Shown: one piece after another, positions 10,562 to 62,671 of the stretch
Numbering within the stretch: the stretch's first letter is position 1
Layout: each line of letters begins with the position of its first letter
NCBI GenBank assembly: GCA_964639185.1
Contig: CAZXCN010000001.1
Location: 38,626 to 102,625, forward strand
Origin: an uncultured Candidatus Saccharibacteria bacterium
Lineage (GTDB): Bacteria; Patescibacteriota; Minisyncoccia; Phycocordibacterales; UBA9973
Reading direction: 5' to 3'
Length of the DNA: 64,000 nucleotides
Translations under genes and position numbers: made by a program
Notes under the pieces: generated by a model
Told to the model about the DNA's origin: nothing
Seen by the model: only the letters and a program-made list of their open reading frames with translations
Databases searched by the model: none

Positions 10562-10820
10562 AAATTATACAAAATCCCTAAAAAAGATTTTAAGGAGTGG
10601 AAAAATTCATATTCTAGAAATAGAAATGGTTATTGATTTGCTGGCAGAGGGAAAGACTCTTCCAATCAAGTATCAGGACCACTACCTAACAGGAGAATTT
10701 ACTGGATGTCGTGAATGCCACATAAGGCCAGACTTGCTTCTGATATACAAAATTGAAAAAAATATTCTAATACTCACACTCATCGATATCGGTAGCCACT
10801 CAAAACTTTTCGGTAAATAA
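10542..10820 (+). CDS. Type II toxin, YafQ/RelE family mRNA interferase
   Basis: 92 aa. Motif GEFTGCRECHIRPDLLLIYKI...LIDIGSHSKLF matches the YafQ/RelE toxin family. Paired with the upstream DinJ-like antitoxin. Confidence 0.75.
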   Translation: MLVYKSKNYTKSLKKILRSGKIHILEIEMVIDLLAEGKTLPIKYQDHYLTGEFTGCRECHIRPDLLLIYKIEKNILILTLIDIGSHSKLFGK

Positions 10821-10856
10821 AATTCCCCTAGGTCGGACCTAGGGGAATTTTATTTT
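10818..10856. terminator. Bidirectional terminator hairpin (AAAATTCCCCTAGGT..CCTAGGGGAATTTT)
   Basis: 14-bp perfect inverted repeat flanked by A- and T-runs between convergent yafQ-like and glmS. Confidence 0.75.
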
Positions 10857-13474: not shown

Positions 13475-15598
13475 ATGAATACACAAGAATTCGAGGTAGA
13501 GATAGGTGGCAAGAAAATTGTCGCAATGTTTAGCGACCTAGCTGACCAAGCCAATGGTTCAGTCATGTTAAAAAGTGGTGGCACAGTAGTCATGGCCACA
13601 GCAGTGATAAGTCGCGATGGAAAATCTAATCCAGGATTTTTTAATTTAACTGTTGAATATTTAGAAAAGTTTTATGCGTCTGGAAAAATACTCGGCTCAC
13701 AATTTATGCGTCGTGAAGGCCGACCAAGCGACCAAGCTATACTTGCTGCACGCGTTATCGACCGCACTATCCGCCCATTGTTTGATCATCGGATTAAAAA
13801 TGCAGTTCAAGTAATTATCACTGTTATAGCTATCGGTGATACTGATCCAAAAATGCTCGGCATCAATGCTGCGTCTATTGCGCTCCACATGTCTGACATT
13901 CCATGGGCAGGGCCTATCGGTGCTGTGCACATAAGTAACACAAAAGAAGACAGTATACTTGCAGTAAATAATTATATTCCAAATTCTGACGAACCAGTAT
14001 ACACACTAGACTTAATGGTGTGCGGAAAAGACAAAACAATAAATATGATCGAGGCGATGACATTTGAGCTTTCTGAAGAATTGGTGGGCCAAGCATTTGA
14101 CCTTGCAAGTGACGAAATAACAAAGTGGGAAAACTTCCAAAAAACTCTACGTGAAAAATTAGGTAAAGAGAAGTTGGTTTTTACAACAGCTGAAACAACT
14201 GAAGAAATAAAAAGTTTGTTTAATGAAAAAATTACTCCAATGTTAGACGCTGGTTTATTCAGCAAAACAGAAAGCAAAAAAACAATCACCGAAGCTGAAC
14301 ATGAATGGAAAAAAATATGCGAAGAAAAATATGCCGAGGACCAAGCGATGAAATTTATAGCCGAGGATTACATTGAAACATATATCGACAAAGCTTTACA
14401 TGTTGCCGCACTTACAAAAGACATGCGTCCAGACATGCGAGGACTCGATGAAGTTCGAGCCCTCTCTGGTATGGCTGGTGGTATATCCGATGTGTTACAC
14501 GGCTCTGGTGTATTTTACCGTGGGCAAACTCATGTATTGAGCGTACTGACACTTGCAGGTCCCGAGAGCATGCACACAATAGATGGAATCGAATTCTCTG
14601 CGAAGAAAAGATTTATGCATCATTATAATTTCCCTCCATATTCTGCTGGTGAAACAGGTCGCGTAGGTGGAATCAATCGCCGTGAAATGGGTCATGGATT
14701 CCTAGCAGAAAAAGCTTTACTACCAGTGTTACCAAACAAAATAGATTTCCCTTATACTATTCGCCTTGTTTCAGAATCTACGGCATCAAATGGTTCTACA
14801 TCACAAGCTTCAATATGTGCGGCAACAATAGCACTACTTGATGGTGGTGTGCCGATCAAATACCCAGTAGCAGGAATATCAGTTGGTGTAATGATGGATG
14901 ATACTGACCCTACAAAATACAAATTGATAACTGACATTCAAGGCCCTGAGGATCACTATGGTGATATGGATTTTAAAGTTGCCGGAACTACAAATGGTAT
15001 TACTGCAATACAATTAGATATAAAAGTAGACGGTGTTCCAGTAAAAGTTTTAAAGGATGCTTTGATAAAAGCAAAAACTGCACGACTACATATACTCGAA
15101 GCAATCACGAATGTAATCAGTGCACCACGTGCCGACATATCACCAAAGGCCCCAAAGATAGTGGTAACAAAAGTGAAGACAACTCAGATAGGATTGATAA
15201 TCGGACCAGGTGGAAAAAATGTAAATGCAATTCGTGAAGAAACAGGCGCAGAAATAAGTATCGAAGAAGACGGAACAATATACATAACAGGTAAAGATGG
15301 TGCTGCAGATAAAGCAAAGAAAATAATCGAGGACATGACTCATGAATACAAGCCAGGCGACACAGCCCAAGGTGTTGTAGTAAAGATCACTGACTTTGGT
15401 GCATTCGTAAAGATAGGACGTGATACTGAAGGACTCGTGCATGTTTCTGAAATGGCCCCATTCCGCGTAGAGAAAATTTCTGATATTCTTAAAGAAGGAC
15501 AAACTGTTCCGATAAAGATATTGAAGCTCGATGAAAAAGGCCGTTTGTCATTTTCTATAAAAGAAGCTGACGGAGATTTCTTTAAACCAAAAGCTTAA
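13475..15598 (+). CDS. pnp: Polyribonucleotide nucleotidyltransferase (PNPase)
   Basis: Two RNase PH domains, KH and S1 domains (GQTVPIKILKLDEKGRLSFSIKEA at C-terminus). 707 aa. Confidence 0.95.
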   Translation: MNTQEFEVEIGGKKIVAMFSDLADQANGSVMLKSGGTVVMATAVISRDGKSNPGFFNLTVEYLEKFYASGKILGSQFMRREGRPSDQAILAARVIDRTIRPLFDHRIKNAVQVIITVIAIGDTDPKMLGINAASIALHMSDIPWAGPIGAVHISNTKEDSILAVNNYIPNSDEPVYTLDLMVCGKDKTINMIEAMTFELSEELVGQAFDLASDEITKWENFQKTLREKLGKEKLVFTTAETTEEIKSLFNEKITPMLDAGLFSKTESKKTITEAEHEWKKICEEKYAEDQAMKFIAEDYIETYIDKALHVAALTKDMRPDMRGLDEVRALSGMAGGISDVLHGSGVFYRGQTHVLSVLTLAGPESMHTIDGIEFSAKKRFMHHYNFPPYSAGETGRVGGINRREMGHGFLAEKALLPVLPNKIDFPYTIRLVSESTASNGSTSQASICAATIALLDGGVPIKYPVAGISVGVMMDDTDPTKYKLITDIQGPEDHYGDMDFKVAGTTNGITAIQLDIKVDGVPVKVLKDALIKAKTARLHILEAITNVISAPRADISPKAPKIVVTKVKTTQIGLIIGPGGKNVNAIREETGAEISIEEDGTIYITGKDGAADKAKKIIEDMTHEYKPGDTAQGVVVKITDFGAFVKIGRDTEGLVHVSEMAPFRVEKISDILKEGQTVPIKILKLDEKGRLSFSIKEADGDFFKPKA

Positions 15599-18866: not shown

Positions 18867-20072
18867 TTAATCCTTTATACTGTAACTTGTGGAATTCTTT
18901 GCAAGACCAAGATATGGATTAATGGATCCACCTTTGAATTCAATATGCACGTGTGGGCCTGTCGAGCGACCAGTTGAACCAACGTATCCGATAACATCAC
19001 CCTTCTTTACTGTTTGCCCTGCATGCGAAGCAACAACACTCATATGGGCAAATATTGCCTGCTTGCCATCATTGAAGTTAACAACTACATACAATCCATA
19101 TCCACCATTGTAACCGCTTGAGTCTGTTGTTAGGACAACTCCATCTTGAATAGCATATATAGGTGTACCTTTTGGAGCAGCAAAGTCATAAGCTTGGCCA
19201 TCATGCTGACCTTGTGATATTCGTCCAGTACCAGCAGGGAATGGCCAAATGTATCCTCCTGAAACTTTACCTGAATGAACCATTTGGTTTGGAGTTGCAG
19301 ATTTCTTAGTAGGTGTCTTTACTGAAGTCTTTGGCTTTTCTACTTTTGTAATAGTTGTAGATTTTACACCAACGAGGATCAATGTTTGACCCACTTTCAA
19401 ACTATCACCTTTATCCATAAGGTTGTATTCCAATATATCGCTTGTACTAATACCGTATTTATTTGAAATTCCGCCTAAAGTATCACCCTTTTTCACTACG
19501 TATGAAGCACCTTCTAGAGGGATAATTACGAGTACGGTACCTTCCTCGGTTAATTTACTCTGACTTATATCACTGTTAGCATACAAAATAGAAGCTTTTG
19601 ATACATTGTTTGCCTTAGCAATACTCTCGAGAGTATCACCAGCCTTTACTATATATAGGTTAATTCTAGAATCTGAACCAGAATAACCATTCAAGTCAGC
19701 ATCGGTGCCCATAGGGCCAGTTACTGATTCTAGGGCCTCATCACCAATAATAGTTACATCAGCATCATCAGAGCCTGGCTTCAAGTCGGTAGTTAGGGAA
19801 GATTCCATTAATGGGATATTTTGAGAATTGTGAACTGTACCATTTGATACTTCATCCAAAGCAAATGTCTGACTGCCAAATAACCCACCAATAAAGGAAA
19901 AAAGACCGGCATGAGCTTGGAAAGGTAACACCCAAACAGCCAATATTAGTACCATAGTAGAAAAAGCCTTTGACATATTAGGCTTATTTGATGAGGTTAT
20001 TTCAGTAGGAACGGCTGATCCTGGACTTTCAGGCAAGCTCATATCCTTCTTTGTATTAGAATTTATTTTCAT
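18867..20072 (-). CDS. Secreted peptidoglycan hydrolase: LysM repeats plus M23 (lysostaphin-like) metallopeptidase domain
   Basis: N-terminal TM/signal, two LysM-like segments (GDTLESIAKANNVS; GDTLGGISNKYGIS), and C-terminal M23 motifs (H.G.D; GYVGSTGRSTGPHVHIE). Confidence 0.85.
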   Translation of the reverse strand: MKINSNTKKDMSLPESPGSAVPTEITSSNKPNMSKAFSTMVLILAVWVLPFQAHAGLFSFIGGLFGSQTFALDEVSNGTVHNSQNIPLMESSLTTDLKPGSDDADVTIIGDEALESVTGPMGTDADLNGYSGSDSRINLYIVKAGDTLESIAKANNVSKASILYANSDISQSKLTEEGTVLVIIPLEGASYVVKKGDTLGGISNKYGISTSDILEYNLMDKGDSLKVGQTLILVGVKSTTITKVEKPKTSVKTPTKKSATPNQMVHSGKVSGGYIWPFPAGTGRISQGQHDGQAYDFAAPKGTPIYAIQDGVVLTTDSSGYNGGYGLYVVVNFNDGKQAIFAHMSVVASHAGQTVKKGDVIGYVGSTGRSTGPHVHIEFKGGSINPYLGLAKNSTSYSIKD

Positions 20073-32763: not shown

Positions 32764-34110
32764 ATGCAAAACAATCCACACAAAAGCAGAGCATTGATAA
32801 TCACCTTCGTAATAGTACTTGGGCTATTGATAGGTGGATATTTTGTATTTACTAGTGATACATTGTTTGGAGTAGAGAATAGTATTGGTCAAAAATTCTC
32901 ACCATTTCTAACAACACCAAAAGAGAAAAATCTAAATCAGATAGAAGACCCAAACACACTAGACCCAAATGGGGAAATACCCGATACGAATAATACTAGT
33001 ACTGATGATACTCTTGGAACAGACAGTGGATCAGGAGGAACAGGTAATGGATTCTCTGGTAATATTGGGAGCGGGGGAGCAACAGGCGGTATCTACACAT
33101 CACCAACAGGGGGCTCGGTTGCACTTCCAGGAAGCAAAGGGACAGTTATTACATCTAATTTTGTACCTCAATGTAGCGATAAAATAGACAATGATGCAGA
33201 TAAATTAATCGATGCATTAGATCCGGGTTGCCATAGCGACGGAGACGCAAGTAATACAAAGAGTTACAATAAAAACCAATATCTAGAATACAATTTTATA
33301 CCTGCTTGTAATGATGGAATAGACAATGATGCAGATAAATTAATCGATGCACTAGATCCAGTTTGTCATAGTGACAATAATGCAAAAAATCCTGCAACTT
33401 ATACTCCAAATTATACTTCAGAATATGTATCACAAACCAATACAAATAAAGCATCTAGCCAGTGTAATCCAGACGATCTTGCTCTTGTATTTACAGCCGA
33501 GGAACAAGCCGAGCTTGATGAATTGACTCGTCAATTCTATCGCATTGCTCCAACATTAAAGTCAACAAATGATATCCTGATAGAAGACAAGGCTAAACAA
33601 AGCTATATTGACCTAGTAAACAATGCCACAACACTTACAAATGAATGCTATGCGCAAACATATAATGATAAATATTTAGCAAATAGTACCAGCGTTGTAA
33701 CTGAAGGATTTGAAGCACTTAATACCAGATACTCATCGGACACAAAAGAAATCGATGGAACAGCATATGTTATAAAAACTTGGTATCCTTTCTTAAATAA
33801 TCAAAATGGAACACTCATCAGTGGTGGTAAGGAATTCAAAGAATCTTCAAGCTTAAGTATCCCACTATATCCTTATGCAAGCTTGAGTGGTCCAGATGCA
33901 AGTGGCCTAGGGGACAAAGGCAGGACCGAAAGACGAGGTAACCCTTATATAAGTCAAAAACCAGTATCTTCATATTGGCAAATATACGAAACAAAGCAAG
34001 CGACAAGAGACCCTAATGCTAATTATTATGGAAATGTTTACAAAAAAACCATAATTGGAAATAAATACTTCCCTTGGGCTGACTGGGAAAATATGATGGG
34101 TATTTGGTAA
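32764..34110 (+). CDS. Secreted protein with duplicated Cys-flanked D-x-D-x-D calcium-binding-like modules
   Basis: N-terminal TM/signal. Two copies of C.D.IDNDADKLIDALDP.CHSD (dockerin/EF-hand-like acidic loops) with a 33-nt perfect nucleotide repeat. Gly-rich linker. Confidence 0.5.
   Translation: MQNNPHKSRALIITFVIVLGLLIGGYFVFTSDTLFGVENSIGQKFSPFLTTPKEKNLNQIEDPNTLDPNGEIPDTNNTSTDDTLGTDSGSGGTGNGFSGNIGSGGATGGIYTSPTGGSVALPGSKGTVITSNFVPQCSDKIDNDADKLIDALDPGCHSDGDASNTKSYNKNQYLEYNFIPACNDGIDNDADKLIDALDPVCHSDNNAKNPATYTPNYTSEYVSQTNTNKASSQCNPDDLALVFTAEEQAELDELTRQFYRIAPTLKSTNDILIEDKAKQSYIDLVNNATTLTNECYAQTYNDKYLANSTSVVTEGFEALNTRYSSDTKEIDGTAYVIKTWYPFLNNQNGTLISGGKEFKESSSLSIPLYPYASLSGPDASGLGDKGRTERRGNPYISQKPVSSYWQIYETKQATRDPNANYYGNVYKKTIIGNKYFPWADWENMMGIW
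33184..33216. repeat. 33-nt exact direct repeat, copy 1 (ATAGACAATGATGCAGATAAATTAATCGATGCA)
   Basis: Identical 33-mer at 33319-33351, in frame, 135 nt (45 codons) apart. Confidence 0.8.
33319..33351. repeat. 33-nt exact direct repeat, copy 2
   Basis: Identical to 33184-33216. Confidence 0.8.
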
Positions 34111-44374: not shown

Positions 44375-44438
44375 CCCTCTCCTTTGTAATGAGAGGGGAT
44401 AACCAAAAGAAAAAGAGGAGATTATATCTCCTCTTTTT
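44375..44438. terminator. Two adjacent terminator hairpins between convergent genes (CCCTCTCC..GGAGAGGG and AAAAAGAGGAGAT..ATCTCCTCTTTTT)
   Basis: Perfect inverted repeats with A/T runs, one serving each strand. Confidence 0.7.
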
Positions 44439-44889
44439 CTTTGTATTTAATTACTACTCTACGTCCTGGACCAACTCCAGATGATTCAGTAGTGATGTCT
44501 GGGATATTCTCTAGAAACATGTGCACAATACGACGTTCATATGCAGGCATAGGGTCAAGCTCGACACTATTCTTGAAATATCGTGCGCGCTCAGCCAACA
44601 TGTGTGCAGTAGTTTTCAAGCTATCAAACCTCTTCTTATTATAACCATTGATATCGATCATAAGCATGCCGGCCTCGGCCTCACTTATATCCTTCTCGAT
44701 CATTTTACGAACAATATGATTTAAAGATTTAAGTGTATCACCCTCACGGCCTATCATGAATCGTGAATCGGGTGTTGATACAGAGCACCACAACATTGAG
44801 CCTTCTTCGGTAAATTCACATGCATCCAATTTGCACGCTGTGTGTTTAAATATATCTTCTATTATTTTTTTTATATTATCTTTGTCCAT
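44422..44889 (-). CDS. Jag/KhpB-like R3H-domain RNA-binding protein
   Basis: KH-like plus R3H motif (ERRIVHMFLEN...SSGVGPGRRVVI). Downstream of yidC as in the canonical oriC-region operon. Confidence 0.8.
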   Translation of the reverse strand: MDKDNIKKIIEDIFKHTACKLDACEFTEEGSMLWCSVSTPDSRFMIGREGDTLKSLNHIVRKMIEKDISEAEAGMLMIDINGYNKKRFDSLKTTAHMLAERARYFKNSVELDPMPAYERRIVHMFLENIPDITTESSGVGPGRRVVIKYKEKEEI

Positions 44890-52007: not shown

Positions 52008-53219
52008 GTGGTTTATATGACAAAAGAGGAAATCAAAAATAATACTTTATTGACTAGAGGTGTTTCTGCTGTGTATCCAACAGCTAATTATGTTGCATCT
52101 AGGATCAATCGAGGGGAAAAACTTACAATATATTTAGGTATTGACCCTACTGGCCCAACGCTACATTTGGGGCATGTTATTGCACTACGCAAGCTTGGTG
52201 AATTCCAGCGTGCTGGGCACAAGGTCATAATGCTTTTGGGTGACTTTACTGCAATGATAGGTGATCCTACTGATAAAGGTGCTACTCGTAAACAGCTCAC
52301 TCATAAAGAAGTAATGAAGAATTTAAAGAATTACAAGAAGCAGGCTTCAAAAATTTTATCTTTCTCTGGTAAAAATAGTGCCAAGGTTATGTTCAACTCA
52401 AAGTGGTTGGGAAAAATGAAATTCGAAGATGTGTTGAATCTTGCTTCAAATATGACAGTAAGCCAAATGCTCGAACGTGATATGTTTGAAAAAAGAATAG
52501 AAGAAGGTAAGCCTGTATTTATACATGAATTCATGTACCCACTTATGCAAGGTTATGATAGTGTGGCTATGGACGTGGATGGTGAGATAGGTGGTAATGA
52601 TCAAACATTCAATATGCTTGCTGGACGTGATCTAATGAAGTCATTAAAAAACAAAGAAAAGTTTGTCATAACTATGAAGTTACTCGAAGACAACACTGGT
52701 AAAAAGATGGGTAAGACAGAAGGGAATATGATAGCCTTGTCTGATTCAATAACAGAAATGTTTGGCAAAGTTATGAGTTGGAATGATAACCTAATAATAC
52801 CGGGGTTTGAATTGTGTACAGATGTTCCTATGGAGGATGTTGCATCTATCGCTACAGACATCACTCGTGGAGCATTGAACCCTCGTGATGCAAAGATGCG
52901 CCTTGCTCGAGAAATAATAAAAATATTCTTTTCAGAAGAAAAAGCAAATAAAGTTCAAGAAGAATTTATAGCGACTTTTTCCAAAAAAGAAATTCCTGAT
53001 AATATCGACAATATAAATGTAGGGGCTGATGAGTTATTGATAGATATTTTTGTAAAAGAAAAATTAGTATCTTCTAGGAGTGATTTTCGTAGGTTGGTAG
53101 ATGAAGGTGCTATTACAAATCTAACAACTGATAAAAAGGTTTCTGACAATAATACAAAAGTAGACTCTGGTGTGTATAGAATAGGGAAGAAGAGATTTAT
53201 AAAAATAAATTTTAAATAA
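52008..53219 (+). CDS. tyrS: Tyrosine--tRNA ligase
   Basis: HIGH motif (PTGPTLHLGHV), KMSKS-type motif (KMGKTEG), and C-terminal S4 RNA-binding domain (SRSDFRRLVDEGAI). True start may be the Met at 52017. Confidence 0.9.
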   Translation: MVYMTKEEIKNNTLLTRGVSAVYPTANYVASRINRGEKLTIYLGIDPTGPTLHLGHVIALRKLGEFQRAGHKVIMLLGDFTAMIGDPTDKGATRKQLTHKEVMKNLKNYKKQASKILSFSGKNSAKVMFNSKWLGKMKFEDVLNLASNMTVSQMLERDMFEKRIEEGKPVFIHEFMYPLMQGYDSVAMDVDGEIGGNDQTFNMLAGRDLMKSLKNKEKFVITMKLLEDNTGKKMGKTEGNMIALSDSITEMFGKVMSWNDNLIIPGFELCTDVPMEDVASIATDITRGALNPRDAKMRLAREIIKIFFSEEKANKVQEEFIATFSKKEIPDNIDNINVGADELLIDIFVKEKLVSSRSDFRRLVDEGAITNLTTDKKVSDNNTKVDSGVYRIGKKRFIKINFK

Positions 53220-53222
53220 AAT

Positions 53223-53250
53223 TAAAACCCTCCATTTATGGAGGGTTTTA
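53223..53250. terminator. Bidirectional terminator hairpin (AAAACCCTCCA..TGGAGGGTTTT)
   Basis: Perfect inverted repeat with flanking A/T runs after tyrS and after the minus-strand ruvC-small ORF unit. Confidence 0.7.
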
Positions 53251-53254
53251 ATTT

Positions 53255-54190: not shown

Positions 54191-55213
54191 TTATTTTTCA
54201 ATAAACTCGAAACCTAAATGCTCATATGCCTTCTTTGTTACAGTACGTCCACGAGGTGTGCGCTCGAGGAATCCGAGCTGTATTAGGTATGGCTCGATAA
54301 CTTCCTCTATAGTAGCCTCTTCCTCACTTGTAGCTGCGGCTATCGTCTTGAGTCCAACTGGTCCACCATTGAATTTATCTATCACTGTTGTTAACACGCG
54401 TCTGTCTGAAGATGTTAATCCATGTTCATCTATCTCAAGTAATGCCAATGCTTTCTTTACAGAATCTTTCGTCATATTTGTTTTGTGTACTTGAGCAAAA
54501 TCACGACAACGCTTTAGGAAATAATTTGCAGTACGTGGTGTGAATCGTGCACGCATTGCTATTTCATCCAAAGCTTCGTCCTCGAGTACGATACCTAGGA
54601 TTTTGGCAGAGCGACCTAATATTTTTTTTATTTCTTCATGAGTGTAGAATTCTAGGCGAAAGACTCCTCCTGAGAATCTGGATCGTAGTGGTGATGACAA
54701 TAATGCAATACGAGTGGTGGCTGCGATCATGGTAAATGGTGGTAACTCGAGTTGGATCGTTCTAGCTGATGGACCTTTACCGATAATAATATCAAGTACA
54801 CCGCTTTCCATTGCTGGGTAAAGAACTTCTTCTACCATTTTATTTAGTCTGTGTATCTCATCTATAAATACAATATCACCAGGGGAGAGGTTGGTCAGTA
54901 TCGATGCCAAGTCACCAACTTTTTCAATAGCAGGTCCGGAGGTTATTTTCATTTGGCGACCAGTGTCTTTGGCTATAAGGTGGGCCAAAGTAGTTTTACC
55001 AAGGCCTGGTGGCCCATAAAATAGTATATGTTCAGGAGGGTGATTGCGTTCGCTCGCCGCTTGTAGTAATATTCGCAAGTTTTCCTTTATATTATTTTGG
55101 CCAATATAATCATCCCAGATACTTGGTCGTAAAGTTTGGTCTAAAAATCCATCATCTTTTACAGATGTTTCTTCGGAATCGATATTTTCAGTGTTTTTAT
55201 TTAGGCTTGACAT
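54191..55213 (-). CDS. ruvB: Holliday junction branch migration ATPase RuvB
   Basis: AAA+ Walker [12 protein letters not shown], Walker B VFIDEIHR, sensor motifs, and winged-helix C-terminus. Confidence 0.95.
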
Positions 55214-55478
55214 AAAAATTTTAATATGCTATACTCTTCTCAGATATGTTTTAACTGTTTATGTAAGAAGTATATCATTTCTTAATCAAAACTTCATATC
55301 AATGCAAAAGAGGACATGAATCTCTAAGCAATCAGCCCCTGGCTCTATATTTGTGCGTAGGACGTCCTGGTTTATTTTTAATATTACTGGGTCCATCCTG
55401 CAATCCTGTGTTACTTTAGTGGTCTTGTATCATTAAAGGATTGTTTAGAGATTTATGTCTTTTTTAATTTCTGTTAAT

Positions 55479-55508
55479 ACACCCATAATGTTTCGGGTGT
55501 ATTTTTTT
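55479..55508 (+). terminator. Plus-strand terminator hairpin (ACACCC..GGGTGT followed by T7)
   Basis: 6-bp GC-rich stem followed by TATTTTTTT. Implies a plus-strand transcript ending here although no CDS precedes it. See finding on candidate sRNA. Confidence 0.5.
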
Positions 55509-55537
55509 ATCCCTCAATAGCGACGGCCGTCGCTAAG
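55507..55537. repeat. GC-rich palindromic repeat, copy 1 (CAATAGCGACGGCCGTCGCTAAGTGATATTA)
   Basis: 18-bp perfect palindrome TAGCGACGGCCGTCGCTA. Related copies at 56140 and 56765 carry compensatory C/G swaps that preserve the palindrome. Confidence 0.85.
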
Positions 55538-55581
55538 TGATATTATGTTGTTATGTTTTTATCTCATGATATAGTAATAAT

Positions 55582-56121
55582 ATGGATAAAATAACAAATG
55601 GCGATGTTGAATTAAAATACCTTGATATAAATAGATATCAAGAACTTTTTGACCTTACAGATAAGAATCGTACTTATTTAAAGAAAACACTAGCTTGGTT
55701 GGACATAACTAAGACGGAAGAAGTTTCAAAAAAGTTTATTGAAACATCTCTAGAAAAACAAAAAAATGGTAGTGGAATAGCTTTTGAGATCTGGTACAAG
55801 GGTGAATTTGTTGGAATGATTGATTATCACGATATGGATAAAAGGAATAATATTGGTCGGATTGGTTATTGGTTGGATGAGGGTCATCAAGGTAAGGGTA
55901 TCATAACCGAAGCTTGTAAATTAATTATTAAATATGGTTTTGAAAAATTGAATTTAAATAGAATAGAGATAATTTGCGCGCTCCACAATCCAAGGAGTGG
56001 TGCTGTGGCACAAAGACTTGGATTTGTAAAAGAGGGGGTATTACGTAAATGGGCATTCATGTATGACCACTATGACGACATGGAATCTTGGAGCCTAATA
56101 AAAGGTGAAGAATCTTTCTAA
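55582..56121 (+). CDS. GNAT-family N-acetyltransferase (RimJ/RimL-like)
   Basis: Acetyl-CoA binding motif region QGKGIITEA...RIEI and overall RimJ/L-like layout. 179 aa. Confidence 0.8.
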   Translation: MDKITNGDVELKYLDINRYQELFDLTDKNRTYLKKTLAWLDITKTEEVSKKFIETSLEKQKNGSGIAFEIWYKGEFVGMIDYHDMDKRNNIGRIGYWLDEGHQGKGIITEACKLIIKYGFEKLNLNRIEIICALHNPRSGAVAQRLGFVKEGVLRKWAFMYDHYDDMESWSLIKGEESF

Positions 56122-56139
56122 TATTTATAATAATATATT

Positions 56140-56169
56140 AATAGCCACGGCCGTGGCTAAGTCATATTA
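56140..56169. repeat. GC-rich palindromic repeat, copy 2 (AATAGCCACGGCCGTGGCTAAGTCATATTA)
   Basis: 18-bp perfect palindrome TAGCCACGGCCGTGGCTA. Lies between the convergent GNAT and PaaX-like genes. Confidence 0.85.
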
Positions 56170-56188
56170 CAATAAGATATCATTTGTT

Positions 56189-56746
56189 TTAAAGATTGAA
56201 ATGTCTTTCTAGTCTTTCTCTATTTGTTAAGTCTTTTACTAATGCAAATTGGACGTATTTACCAATGTTCCAATAATTCGCTATGAAATCAATCTCTTTC
56301 TGGCAAGGGTATGGGTATACCCACACACTATCATTAAATTTTATAAAACCCATTTCTTTCATCTTGTTTCTCAGGGAATCTCTGGCGTTTCTTTTATTTT
56401 CTGGAATATCAAAGATTATCATTCTAAAATTCCTATCCCAAACCTTATCTTCTTTAATTTTAATTTCCTCATAATTAAATCTAAGAAATATTTTCTTGCC
56501 ATCTTCTGTTAAGGTAATCTTGTCTTCTTTTCCAATCTTTTCTATTTTAATTAATTTCTGCTTTCTTAGTTTATGAAAATACTGACTAACATTTTTAGGT
56601 TTTTTATCTTTAAAAATATCTTTTATAATTTCATTTGCAAACTTATAACTAACTCTTTTATTTGAGAGGGTAGCAAGTACCCCCAGACTCATACCCAGAG
56701 ATCTTATTATTTTTCCACTTGTTGATGACTTATCTATGTTTCTCAT
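56189..56746 (-). CDS. Short PaaX-family-like transcriptional regulator (winged helix plus PaaX WD...FD.PE...R..R..L...GF....SVWV.P motif)
   Basis: N-terminal wHTH-like region. Motif WDRNFRMIIFDIPENKRNARDSLRNKMKEMGFIKFNDSVWVYPYP matches the conserved PaaX core (WDG.W.L....VPE..R..RD.LR..L...GF..L..GVWV.P). 185 aa, shorter than E. coli PaaX. Confidence 0.5.
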   Translation of the reverse strand: MRNIDKSSTSGKIIRSLGMSLGVLATLSNKRVSYKFANEIIKDIFKDKKPKNVSQYFHKLRKQKLIKIEKIGKEDKITLTEDGKKIFLRFNYEEIKIKEDKVWDRNFRMIIFDIPENKRNARDSLRNKMKEMGFIKFNDSVWVYPYPCQKEIDFIANYWNIGKYVQFALVKDLTNRERLERHFNL

Positions 56747-56764
56747 CTGTATTTAATTATATCA

Positions 56765-56795
56765 CAATAGCCACGGCCGTGGCTAAGTCATATTA
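56765..56795. repeat. GC-rich palindromic repeat, copy 3 (CAATAGCCACGGCCGTGGCTAAGTCATATTA)
   Basis: Identical to copy 2 over 30 nt. Lies between the PaaX-like gene and the pilB/gspE stop. Confidence 0.85.
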
Positions 56796-56814: not shown

Positions 56815-58533
56815 TTAGGCTTCGTAGAAGTCTACAACACTAGCCACTTCTTCGTACGATGTGATACCTGTTAGGATTTTTACCACACCATCTTCTTTCA
56901 TATTTAGTATGCCTTGGTTTGCGGCTACTTCACGGATCTCGCGTTCGCTTGGGTTTTTTGGGATGATGGCTTCTATGTTGGCATCATTTTGTATTGCTTC
57001 AAATAATCCCATACGGCCCTTGTATCCAGTATTGTTACATTGTTCGCAACCGGAAGCCTCGTATAATTTAATACCAGCTTCAATATCTACACCATAATCC
57101 TTTATATCTTTGTTATGAGTTTTAGCTTCGGCAATAATAGCATTTATTATTTTTAACTCTTCTTCGTTTACTTGTTTTTCCTTTTTGCAATTTACGCATA
57201 GCTTGCGTACAAGACGCTGAGCAATGGAGAGTGAAAGTGCAGAAACCAATATCTTTGGATTTACATCTAGGTCGATAAGGCGGGGGATCACACCAGCTGC
57301 ATTGTTGGTATGAAGGGTTGAGAACACTAGGTGGCCAGTAAGTGCTGATTCGACAGCTATCTTTGCTGTCTCTGCGTCACGGATTTCACCCACCATGATT
57401 ACATCTGGGTCTTGGCGTAGTGATGAACGTAAGCCTTCGAGGAATGTATAACCTTTTTCATCACTTGTTTGAGTTTGAGTAATACCAGGCAAGTGGTATT
57501 CGATAGGGTCTTCGATTGTGATGATTTTTATTTCAGTTGAATATATTCTTTGCAAGAATGCATAGAGTGTTGTTGTCTTACCACTACCTGTTGGACCAGT
57601 TAGGAGTATCATGCCATTTGGCTTTTTTATTTCACGCATGAATACTTCGTATAATTTGGGTTCGATACCCATATCCTCAAGTTTTACACGGATAGATTTT
57701 GGATTTAATATACGCATTACCACGCCCTCGCCATATGCACCAGGTATTAGTGATACACGCACACTTATTTCTTCCTCGTTAAGGATTATACTGAATCGTC
57801 CGTCTTGTGCTGTGCGTTCAGTACTTATCTTTACGCCTGATAATATTTTAATACGTGAATTTAGAAAGCGATGTATTTCATGAGGTATATCGATCACTTC
57901 TTGGAGTACACCATCGAGTCGGTATCGGAGTCTAACAGTAGCTTCCTCTGGTTCAAAGTGTATATCTGAAGCATCAATAGCAATAGCACCAGCTAGTATT
58001 ACTTCGAGTATGTGTGATGTAGTGTGAACTTTATCTTTCTCGACTTCTTCTATTTTTTTCTTTACATCGACTAAGCTTTTTATATCTTTACCTATCTCGC
58101 TTAGGACTTCACCAGATATGTCTATGCTACCAGCATGAGATTGTTCAGCATAAGACATTTCTTTGTACCTATCCCAAGCTTTAGTCAGGCTCGCAAGTGA
58201 AGCCATATAGAAGTGGGGAATAAAACCATGGTTTTTGAAATATTCAGTTAGTTTTGTTAAGTGTTCAGGTATGGGTGATCGTACTGCTACATGTAGTTCG
58301 TGCCCGAGCACCTTAAAAGGGGCTACTTGTTCTTCCAAAGCATCTTTTTCTTTCATTGCACGTAAAGCATCATTCTCTATTGGAAGGTTAGCTAGGTTGA
58401 TATGAGGGATATTGTACTTGCTTTCGGCAAGCATAGCCACTAACTCCTCCTCTTCATCTTTTCTTAAATCTTGAAGCTCTTTTTCACTCTTATCGTCATC
58501 AAATTGAATTGTCATAATGGCCTTATTATACAA
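56815..58533 (-). CDS. Type II secretion / type IV pilus assembly ATPase (GspE/PilB family)
   Basis: N-terminal GspII-type domain, Walker A LLTGPTGSGKTTTL, Asp/His boxes, and C-terminal tetra-Cys zinc motif CVNC...CEQCNNTGYKGR. 572 aa. Confidence 0.9.
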   Translation of the reverse strand: MYNKAIMTIQFDDDKSEKELQDLRKDEEEELVAMLAESKYNIPHINLANLPIENDALRAMKEKDALEEQVAPFKVLGHELHVAVRSPIPEHLTKLTEYFKNHGFIPHFYMASLASLTKAWDRYKEMSYAEQSHAGSIDISGEVLSEIGKDIKSLVDVKKKIEEVEKDKVHTTSHILEVILAGAIAIDASDIHFEPEEATVRLRYRLDGVLQEVIDIPHEIHRFLNSRIKILSGVKISTERTAQDGRFSIILNEEEISVRVSLIPGAYGEGVVMRILNPKSIRVKLEDMGIEPKLYEVFMREIKKPNGMILLTGPTGSGKTTTLYAFLQRIYSTEIKIITIEDPIEYHLPGITQTQTSDEKGYTFLEGLRSSLRQDPDVIMVGEIRDAETAKIAVESALTGHLVFSTLHTNNAAGVIPRLIDLDVNPKILVSALSLSIAQRLVRKLCVNCKKEKQVNEEELKIINAIIAEAKTHNKDIKDYGVDIEAGIKLYEASGCEQCNNTGYKGRMGLFEAIQNDANIEAIIPKNPSEREIREVAANQGILNMKEDGVVKILTGITSYEEVASVVDFYEA

Positions 58534-62594: not shown

Positions 62595-62615
62595 TATCTC
62601 CGATGTAAGATAAAC

Positions 62616-62645
62616 AAAAACCCTCTTTTAAAGAGGGTTTTTGTT
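62616..62645 (+). terminator. Terminator hairpin (AAAAACCCTCTTT..AAGAGGGTTTTT)
   Basis: Perfect inverted repeat plus T-run after the surface-protein gene. Confidence 0.7.
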
Positions 62646-62671
62646 TATGTGTGTAAATATTGATTTGATGC

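Follow-up and report, generated by a model that had tools for sequence, protein, structure and literature searches.

Paired or auxiliary operators that loop DNA are a feature of lambda CI, with its OL and OR sites flanking the immunity region, and of LacI, GalR and DeoR, and in the REP-associated tyrosine transposases (RAYT; REP, repetitive extragenic palindromic) a single-copy gene is flanked by palindromes that its product is thought to recognise. The PaaX repressor of Escherichia coli and Pseudomonas (PDB 8a39, 3L09) has operators at Px, Pa and Pz, and the E. coli protein binds as a winged helix-turn-helix (wHTH) dimer to TGATTC-N27-GAATCA, keeping RNA polymerase away from its own promoter, Px, and thereby repressing it (PMC9493321). 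The present study concerns a 64,000-nt stretch (hereafter the window) from the genome of an uncultured Candidatus Saccharibacteria bacterium (assembly GCA_964639185.1, contig CAZXCN010000001.1, positions 38,626 to 102,625), in which a palindromic repeat occurs in three copies, the second and third of them on either side of a gene for a short PaaX-like protein, here called mini-PaaX. With some reservation, we regard the repeats as probably the cognate DNA sites of the mini-PaaX encoded between copies 2 and 3, a reading drawn from sequence comparison.

The mini-PaaX gene (56189-56746, minus strand) encodes 185 aa and matches the PaaX_M family PF20803 with 72.3 bits against a cut-off of 24 (E = 3.6e-20). 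Its layout resembles PaaX in that an N-terminal winged helix, predicted here at about residues 9-79, is followed by the Cas2-like domain that is central in PaaX and C-terminal in mini-PaaX (about residues 101-171), and also in that a long dyad, of about 36 bp here, lies over the regulator's own promoter. PaaX itself is considerably longer (about 305-316 aa), and mini-PaaX remains far below the cut-off of the PaaX equivalog TIGR02277 (37.3 against 264.55 bits), with an alignment that covers residues 58-170 only, corresponding to model positions 42-151 of 279. The PaaX C-terminal domain PF08223 gave no match, the protein stopping at residue 185, directly after the Cas2-like domain; the Pfam search found no PF07848 either, and the N-terminal part showed only sub-threshold winged-helix matches (DUF6293_C, 25.2 bits against 27). 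The AlphaFold2 model has a pLDDT (predicted local distance difference test) of 76-89 in the Cas2-like domain and a low one of 35-51 in residues 9-79, which adopt a helix-helix-helix-beta-beta topology. Cas2 proteins came out on top in Foldseek, with PaaX 8a39 among the matches, and a sequence search of solved structures with mini-PaaX gave no match. The ferredoxin-like Cas2 fold and the aspartate motif 'FDIPE' in its beta1 strand are shared with Cas2 and VapD, whereas in mini-PaaX this fold is fused to a predicted DNA-binding domain and no CRISPR array or cas genes occur among the immediate neighbours. The aspartate D113 of mini-PaaX is invariant. Further differences from PaaX are found in the DNA: the site contains TAGCCACGGCCGTGGCTA, with unrelated arms and a conserved CG-NN-CG centre, no paa genes occur among the immediate neighbours (RuvB, GNAT, PilB) and no link to phenylacetyl-CoA is evident, and nearly every family member has a second site past the stop codon.

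The protein belongs to a very large family. Searches returned 271 homologues, with hundreds of close ones at 60-77% identity, and the family comprises 3,196 clusters at 50% identity (E <= 1e-3), mostly of 170-230 aa. An origin from a phage, plasmid or virus was rejected, as the viral contigs, phage records and plasmids searched yielded no relative other than one distant PaaX. In the literature on PaaX with Cas2-like, Patescibacteria or candidate phyla radiation (CPR), PaaX-like or PF20803, no description of the mini-PaaX family was found. The autoregulated winged-helix repressor with a palindromic operator is known already; the searchable literature gave no precedent for the truncated PaaX architecture, for the invariable site-gene-site bracket in a very large family of Patescibacteria or for the fast diversification of domain and site together.

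The repeat unit AATAGCsACGGCCGTsGCTAAGTsATATTA is present as three direct copies at 55516-55545, 56140-56169 and 56766-56795. The 18-bp pattern TAGCSACGGCCGTSGCTA at its core matches exactly three times in 64 kb (55518-55535, 56142-56159 and 56768-56785), each time as a perfect 18-bp palindrome, against an expectation of 0.02 in the shuffled window, which confirms that the palindromic repeats reported by the first-pass annotation are real; a fourth match was not found in the window even at up to three mismatches. When the 30-bp unit was searched, copies 2 and 3 had no mismatch and copy 1 had three, with no matches in the shuffles, and a repeat search extended the similarity to 42 nt at 76-100% identity; copies 1 and 3 are preceded by a C, copy 2 by a T. 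The distances from copy to copy are 624 and 626 bp, slightly less than the 630 bp first estimated, and this regular spacing of about 625 bp only reflects the coincidence of two similar gene lengths. Three positions set copy 1 apart from copies 2 and 3. Two of them form a symmetric C/G swap that leaves the palindrome perfect, as had been reported; the account was incomplete in that a third change (C to G) is also present and generates the TG of an extended -10 element, TGATATTAT. Folded as RNA, each copy gives a 7-bp GC-rich stem with a GGCC loop that can be extended through the AT-rich arms (-12 to -15 kcal/mol, z = -2.3 to -4.1). The Logan assembly of run SRR12712865 is identical to the window over 9,875 bp, including all three copies, and may derive from the same sample. 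Going by the names of homologues and related loci, the bacterium is of the Patescibacteria / Nomurabacteria type. No Rfam family matched the repeats, either at the gathering threshold in the whole window or at E <= 1 in 55150-55600. The window shows no avoidance of the restriction site CGGCCG, with five occurrences where about two are expected.

Among the three copies, copy 3 (56754-56795, minus strand, from the repeat and pattern searches) has the most complete site. Its 18-bp core (56768-56785) lies within a 36-bp dyad (56759-56794), it is the only copy that has both outer arms (ATATGAC ... GTGATAT), and it has the highest position weight matrix (PWM) score, 30.0. It overlaps the best promoter match of the region, that of the mini-PaaX gene (56756-56785, minus strand; 10 of 12 matches, with TG, in the promoter scan), in which a -35-like TAGCCA (56785-56780) falls inside the palindrome and is followed by an 18-nt spacer and TG plus TATAAT (56761-56756). 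As the ATG at 56746 comes only 9 nt past the -10 element, the mRNA would be leaderless or almost so. A dyad-symmetric site is accordingly found over the regulator's own core promoter, the arrangement of an autoregulated HTH repressor, and copy 3 most likely represents the operator through which the gene represses itself. We propose that a mini-PaaX dimer bound to copy 3, spanning the -35 region to the extended -10, would shut out RNA polymerase and hence repress its own gene, in the way E. coli PaaX does at Px.

The same layout recurs throughout the family. From species-representative genomes 54 loci were taken, and several more were obtained by exact protein look-up; the gene and a palindrome are linked in about 50 loci. 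In 35 orthologous loci (52-70% identity), which are spread over at least three gene neighbourhoods, a related dyad (consensus ATACCATAATAGaCACGGCCGTGtCTATTATGGTAT, about 36 bp) is found twice per locus. The upstream dyad was identified in 32 of these loci, at the position that copy 3 has in the window. In 28 of them 7-13 nt separate its end from the ATG, the distance being exactly 10 nt in 21 loci, and within the dyad a TAGACA -35-like box and a TGnTAATAT extended -10 are set apart by a spacer of 18 nt. A downstream dyad was found in 28 orthologous loci, 12-48 nt past the gene, regardless of the orientation of the downstream neighbours (23 co-directional, 10 convergent). A PWM scan of about 560 kb of flanking sequence returned two sites per locus and one extra site, and none in shuffles. 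More distant relatives at 28-49% identity (in Doudnabacteria, Levybacteria and others) have different palindromes, again one on each side of the gene, with CGATCG, GCTATCGC or GCTATAGC at the centre and with some of them perfect over 42-54 bp. Moreover, a word of at least 12 nt common to the 150 nt upstream and the 150 nt downstream was present for 11 of 15 distant family genes, compared with 4 of 154 other genes in the same loci.

Besides its position, the site also varies together with the protein. Across 32 loci, site distance was correlated with the divergence of the N-terminal half (partial r 0.46, a value reached in none of 2,000 permutations), and the corresponding partial r for the Cas2-like half was 0.20. 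All eight loci with an arginine in the motif N-x-(S/P)-R-(Y/H)-F, which lies just before the predicted recognition helix, have an (A/G)TGGTA outer arm, and most loci without that arginine have a TGCTA or TGTTA arm. Genomes with two paralogues show two distinct site types, each around its own gene. The window protein and the protein of locus L031 both have NV(S/N)QYF and both have the rare arms ATATGAC / GTGATAT, yet they are only 63% identical overall. A close relative, the genome of contigs L067 and L070, is 98% identical to the window in RuvB, 93% in PilB and 91% in GNAT; its PaaX-like protein is 77% identical as a whole, 66% in the N-terminal half and 88% in the C-terminal half, and its palindrome arms differ from those of the window. 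In contig L069 (2300-2995) a window-type N-terminal half (96%) and a window-type upstream palindrome are combined with an L070-type downstream palindrome, and the C-terminal half is about equally similar to the window and to L070 (93% each), so the PaaX-like unit of L069 has the appearance of a recombinant. The site accompanies the gene and changes along with its DNA-binding domain, a co-variation to which physical linkage may contribute. Altogether, the linkage of gene and palindrome, the fixed position at the promoter and the N-terminal co-variation strongly favour, among the readings offered by the first-pass annotation, the one in which the repeats would be operators of the PaaX-like wHTH protein.

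The dyad symmetry itself appears to be maintained in the family. Over 65 aligned sites, 129 symmetric double changes were counted against 71 expected, a number reached in none of 500 shuffles, and the excess collapses in slid controls. The earlier deduction of a selected dyad from the covariation of copy 1 is borne out by this family-level excess, but within the window the swap is a single event and possibly comes from the site of another paralogue.

Several points weigh against the operator reading. A second site past the stop codon is unusual for an autoregulator and is unexplained by the operator model, and the near absence of sites away from the gene would leave the regulator with a nearly empty regulon. 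Copies 1 and 2 each lack one outer arm (PWM scores 17-18 against 30), and the N-terminal domain that would read the arms is weakly recognisable as a winged helix in the searches and in the model. With the upstream site bordering directly on the gene at its 5' end, the co-variation between site and N-terminal half may partly stem from physical linkage, as the L069 unit illustrates. Finally, some palindromes are perfect over 36-54 bp and symmetric site differences occur within one genome (in the window and in L083), which suggests selection for base-pairing itself or templated homogenisation, and not the reading of half-sites alone; positions +/-5 and +/-6 give a mixed signal, being unpaired in about 46% of the sites.

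Copy 2 (56133-56169, minus strand, core 56142-56159, from the pattern and repeat searches) is the downstream partner palindrome and lacks one outer arm. It lies 20 nt past the stop codon of the mini-PaaX gene, between the convergent GNAT and mini-PaaX genes, and is the sole structured element of the 67-nt gap that separates them (-12 to -15 kcal/mol, z = -2.6 to -3.4); the terminator scan flagged no T-run there. Copy 2 is the 3' partner site conserved in the family and would most likely bind the same protein. Its job could be that of an auxiliary operator, of a roadblock or insulator against neighbouring transcription, of a (bidirectional) hairpin terminator, or a combination of these.

A rather unlikely alternative is that the repeats are protein-independent hairpins, either bidirectional terminators or stabilisers of 3' ends at gene boundaries, with a symmetry kept for base-pairing. 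Every copy does have a stable GC-rich stem, the family shows the excess of symmetric double changes, and mismatches of the G:T and A:C types have similar frequencies, which is what a role for both strands would predict. The locations also fit, since both family sites nearly always come directly after a co-directional gene (so for 32 of 33 upstream neighbours), copy 2 is the sole structure between convergent genes and takes the place that a canonical bidirectional terminator has in the 50-bp GNAT-PilB gap of the related locus L064, and a solo copy in L082 sits in a 48-bp convergent gap. Bidirectional terminators likewise lie at gene boundaries as extended palindromes, GC-rich in the centre and AT-rich in the arms. 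However, A or T runs are missing from the repeats, the stem has no U-run behind it and none of the copies was flagged by the terminator scan, whereas the window has at least ten canonical terminators of the A-tract, hairpin and T-tract type, each with a unique stem, and on these grounds ordinary intrinsic terminators were rejected. Terminators do not hold their sequence across genomes with 60-70% identical proteins, and they are neither bound to one gene family nor found to co-vary with its DNA-binding domain, as these sites do across species. In addition, the upstream copy precedes the transcription start of the gene itself, and the frequent mismatches at +/-5 and +/-6 count against this alternative as well. 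The termination hairpin lacking a T-run that had been suggested earlier is unlike the ordinary terminators of the window, but it survives as a possible secondary role of the 3' copy, and a hairpin or terminator function may well coexist there with protein binding.

Comparison of related genomes indicates which parts of the locus belong together. Four of them have RuvB, a conserved transcript and GNAT in the same order. One, L064 (PilB 92.8%, RuvB 95.2% and GNAT 82% identical to the window), has neither a PaaX-like gene nor palindromes. The unit of gene and two palindromes is present in L067/L070 and in L083, both of which lack a copy upstream of GNAT. Since GNAT is found in relatives without the regulator or without copy 1, the conserved unit consists of the regulator and two sites, GNAT is resident and copy 1 is new. 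The bracketed unit is therefore the PaaX-like gene alone, with GNAT ancestral at the locus, which does not agree with the proposal of att-like ends around a two-gene GNAT-PaaX cassette; when relatives without such a cassette were looked for, as had been advised, L064 proved to have GNAT without the regulator, and L064, L067 and L083 all have GNAT without copy 1.

Copy 1 (55512-55563, plus strand, core 55518-55535) comes with its carrier segment as a lineage-specific insertion of about 49-52 bp. The alignment with L064, L067 and L068 has a 49-column gap exactly at this segment, which is missing from L083 too. The segment contains the palindrome core, one outer arm and the extended -10 element at 55538-55546, and it is bordered by an 8-bp direct repeat, TTTTTATC (55504-55511 and 55556-55563), so that copy 1 looks like a small insertion, although as a target-site duplication this repeat is one case only and consists of T-rich sequence. 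Copy 1 is placed between a canonical terminator (55480-55509) and the resident GNAT promoter (55548-55575, plus strand), for which the promoter scan gave TTGTTA, 16 nt, TG plus TATAGT and 6 nt to the ATG. The -10 part of this promoter, TGATATAGT, is older than the insertion, being kept in L064, L067 and L083, all without a palindrome there, and the -35-like hexamer falls within the inserted segment. The gene (55582-56121, plus strand; PF13302, E = 1e-23) encodes a RimL/RimJ-like GNAT N-acetyltransferase, which scores 112 bits with the L7/L12-serine acetyltransferase model NF007539, under the cut-off of 184, and has few close homologues (100, 91, 82 and 79% identity, then 55% or less). It is best seen as an accessory neighbour whose promoter region gained copy 1. 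A recent insertion of about 50 bp thus put a partial site, made of the core and one arm, directly in front of the GNAT promoter, along with an additional extended -10, and copy 1 has probably brought the acetyltransferase under the same regulator.

Isolated sites were also encountered beyond the window. When metagenome contigs were scanned for exact occurrences of the window-type core, 11 matches came up, of which two are family sites (in L076 and L082), neither adjoining a PaaX-like gene; the remaining nine lie on unrelated, mostly GC-rich contigs and are chance-like. The solo site of L082 (531-566) fills the 48-bp gap between two convergent genes, one of them for trigger factor, and no locus with a regulator unit at that place was found among the loci compared. 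The solo site of L076 (10121-10156, equivalent to the extra site of L031 at 19738-19773) lies about 80 nt upstream of a TatD-like gene. These solo sites may be regulon members, deletion scars or terminators.

The pattern of gain and loss raises a second alternative, that palindrome-gene-palindrome is a mobile, recombination-prone or selfish module, in which the palindromes would be ends acted on by the wHTH-Cas2-like protein and the solo palindromes its footprints or offshoots. We consider this quite improbable. The unit is absent from the GNAT-PilB gap of L064 despite the high identity of PilB and RuvB there, but a deletion explains the state of L064 equally simply, because L083, which is similarly distant, has the unit. 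Orthologues occur in at least three neighbourhoods and some genomes have two or three paralogues; within sub-clades, however, synteny is stable, with rpoD downstream in at least seven loci and IleRS or Lactamase_B-RecO flanks in at least five. Compared at one and the same locus, the unit has diverged much more quickly than the genes beside it and recombinants such as L069 exist, the two ends of the unit are sometimes identical over 32-42 bp (L056, L061), and nucleases are known among Cas2-fold proteins; against this, no transposase, integrase or recombinase adjoins the unit, the copy number is only about two per gene, and viral, phage and plasmid relatives are missing save for the one distant PaaX. 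The 8-bp repeat around the 50-bp copy 1 insertion and the solo sites of L082 and L076 fit such a module, but a T-rich repeat of this length can arise by slippage and no recognisable target-site duplication surrounds the whole unit in its AT-rich flanks.

On a related and very unlikely reading, the unit would be an undescribed self-recognising module, selfish, mobile or addiction-like and specific to Patescibacteria, with a winged helix for reading the arms and a Cas2-like domain whose substrate would be the extruded hairpin or cruciform or else the RNA hairpin. If so, the unit would be gained, lost and swapped between lineages, and the solo palindromes (copy 1, L082 and L076) would be its offshoots. 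A generic dispersed family of REP elements, bacterial interspersed mosaic elements (BIME) or miniature inverted-repeat transposable elements (MITE) is hardly credible: the elements are short, palindromic and intergenic and copy 1 looks inserted, but the three copies in 64 kb all lie inside 1.3 kb, the roughly 560 kb from 35 loci contain two gene-flanking copies each and one extra, and only 2 of the 11 metagenome matches are family sites, and on this copy number the initial suggestion of a dispersed REP/MITE family was rejected. A CRISPR-like array was dismissed because the 'spacers' of about 595 bp are complete protein-coding genes, and integron or attC cassettes because no recombinase occurs among the neighbouring open reading frames (only the neighbourhood being considered) and the genes are convergent, each with a promoter-like site.

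The autoregulatory reading, in which mini-PaaX would bind the repeats flanking its own gene, also has parallels outside the PaaX group. As in looping repressors, two sites that are presumably cognate lie several hundred bp apart around the regulator gene, one of them over the promoter, and as in phage immunity regions the DNA-binding domain and the operators diversify jointly and fast among close relatives. This likeness is one of layout, and the mini-PaaX sites differ in being single long dyads instead of clusters, with a spacing that equals the gene length, no obvious helical phasing and no phage context. The RAYT systems share the palindrome-flanked gene and occasional extra copies elsewhere, whereas mini-PaaX is not an HUH/Y1 transposase and its sites number two or three, not tens to hundreds, without BIME-like clusters.

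Gene regulation in Patescibacteria is almost unexplored and few members have been cultivated. With the layout described here, sequence alone is enough to assign a likely DNA site to each member of a family of about 3,200 clusters, and the co-variation of motif residues with arm bases, such as that of arginine with GG, may offer a natural code for engineering orthogonal pairs of repressor and operator. From the constant second site past the stop codon one may learn how very compact genomes insulate their genes, unless it points to something less ordinary. Besides, the insertion of about 50 bp, by which the promoter of a ribosomal-protein-type acetyltransferase has lately gained a site, would represent regulatory rewiring in progress.

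Other features of the sites and of the family were recorded separately. Among the 65 aligned sites, two variants of the GGCC centre occur and no others, namely GACC in 8 sites, nearly all upstream copies (7 of 8), and GGTC in 11, mostly downstream copies (8 of 11), a strand bias that resembles a C-to-T change at one position, perhaps by deamination; the CG...CG around the centre is invariant in 65 of 65 sites, although the core pattern used for site selection demands it. A second, distant PaaX_M paralogue of 200 aa (30-35% identity) is encoded in L031 at 14490-15092 (equivalent to L076 5143-5463), 5 kb from the orthologue, and is bracketed on both sides by its own palindrome, TACGCTATAGCGTA. 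The Logan contigs L067, L068, L069, L070, L071 and L083 all end inside a palindrome, about 13-14 nt beyond its centre. Perfect palindromes longer than the assembler k-mer evidently broke these assemblies, and the element with the gene it flanks may consequently be under-represented or split in metagenome-assembled genomes from short reads.

The remaining genes of the region are RuvB (54191-55213, minus strand) and PilB (56815-58533, minus strand), and the identities and positions of the GNAT, PaaX-like and PilB genes were as first annotated. Between RuvB and copy 1, a candidate unannotated small RNA of about 270 nt (55207-55509, plus strand) was noted; it has a strong promoter match of TTGACA, 17 nt and TG-TATACT (55207-55235), ends in the canonical terminator at 55480-55509 and is strongly conserved in L064, L067 and L083. 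No Rfam family matched it, whether the gathering threshold or E <= 1 was applied, and it belongs neither to the tRNAs nor to the tmRNAs, for which the search was negative. Ordinary bidirectional terminators in the window, perfect and with arms of 13-20 nt, include those at 10815-10855, 62610-62648, 44406-44442 and 53219-53254, among others. Elsewhere in the window, a 134-nt unit is found twice in tandem at 33157-33425 (72% identical, spacing 135), probably as a repeated domain within a coding region.

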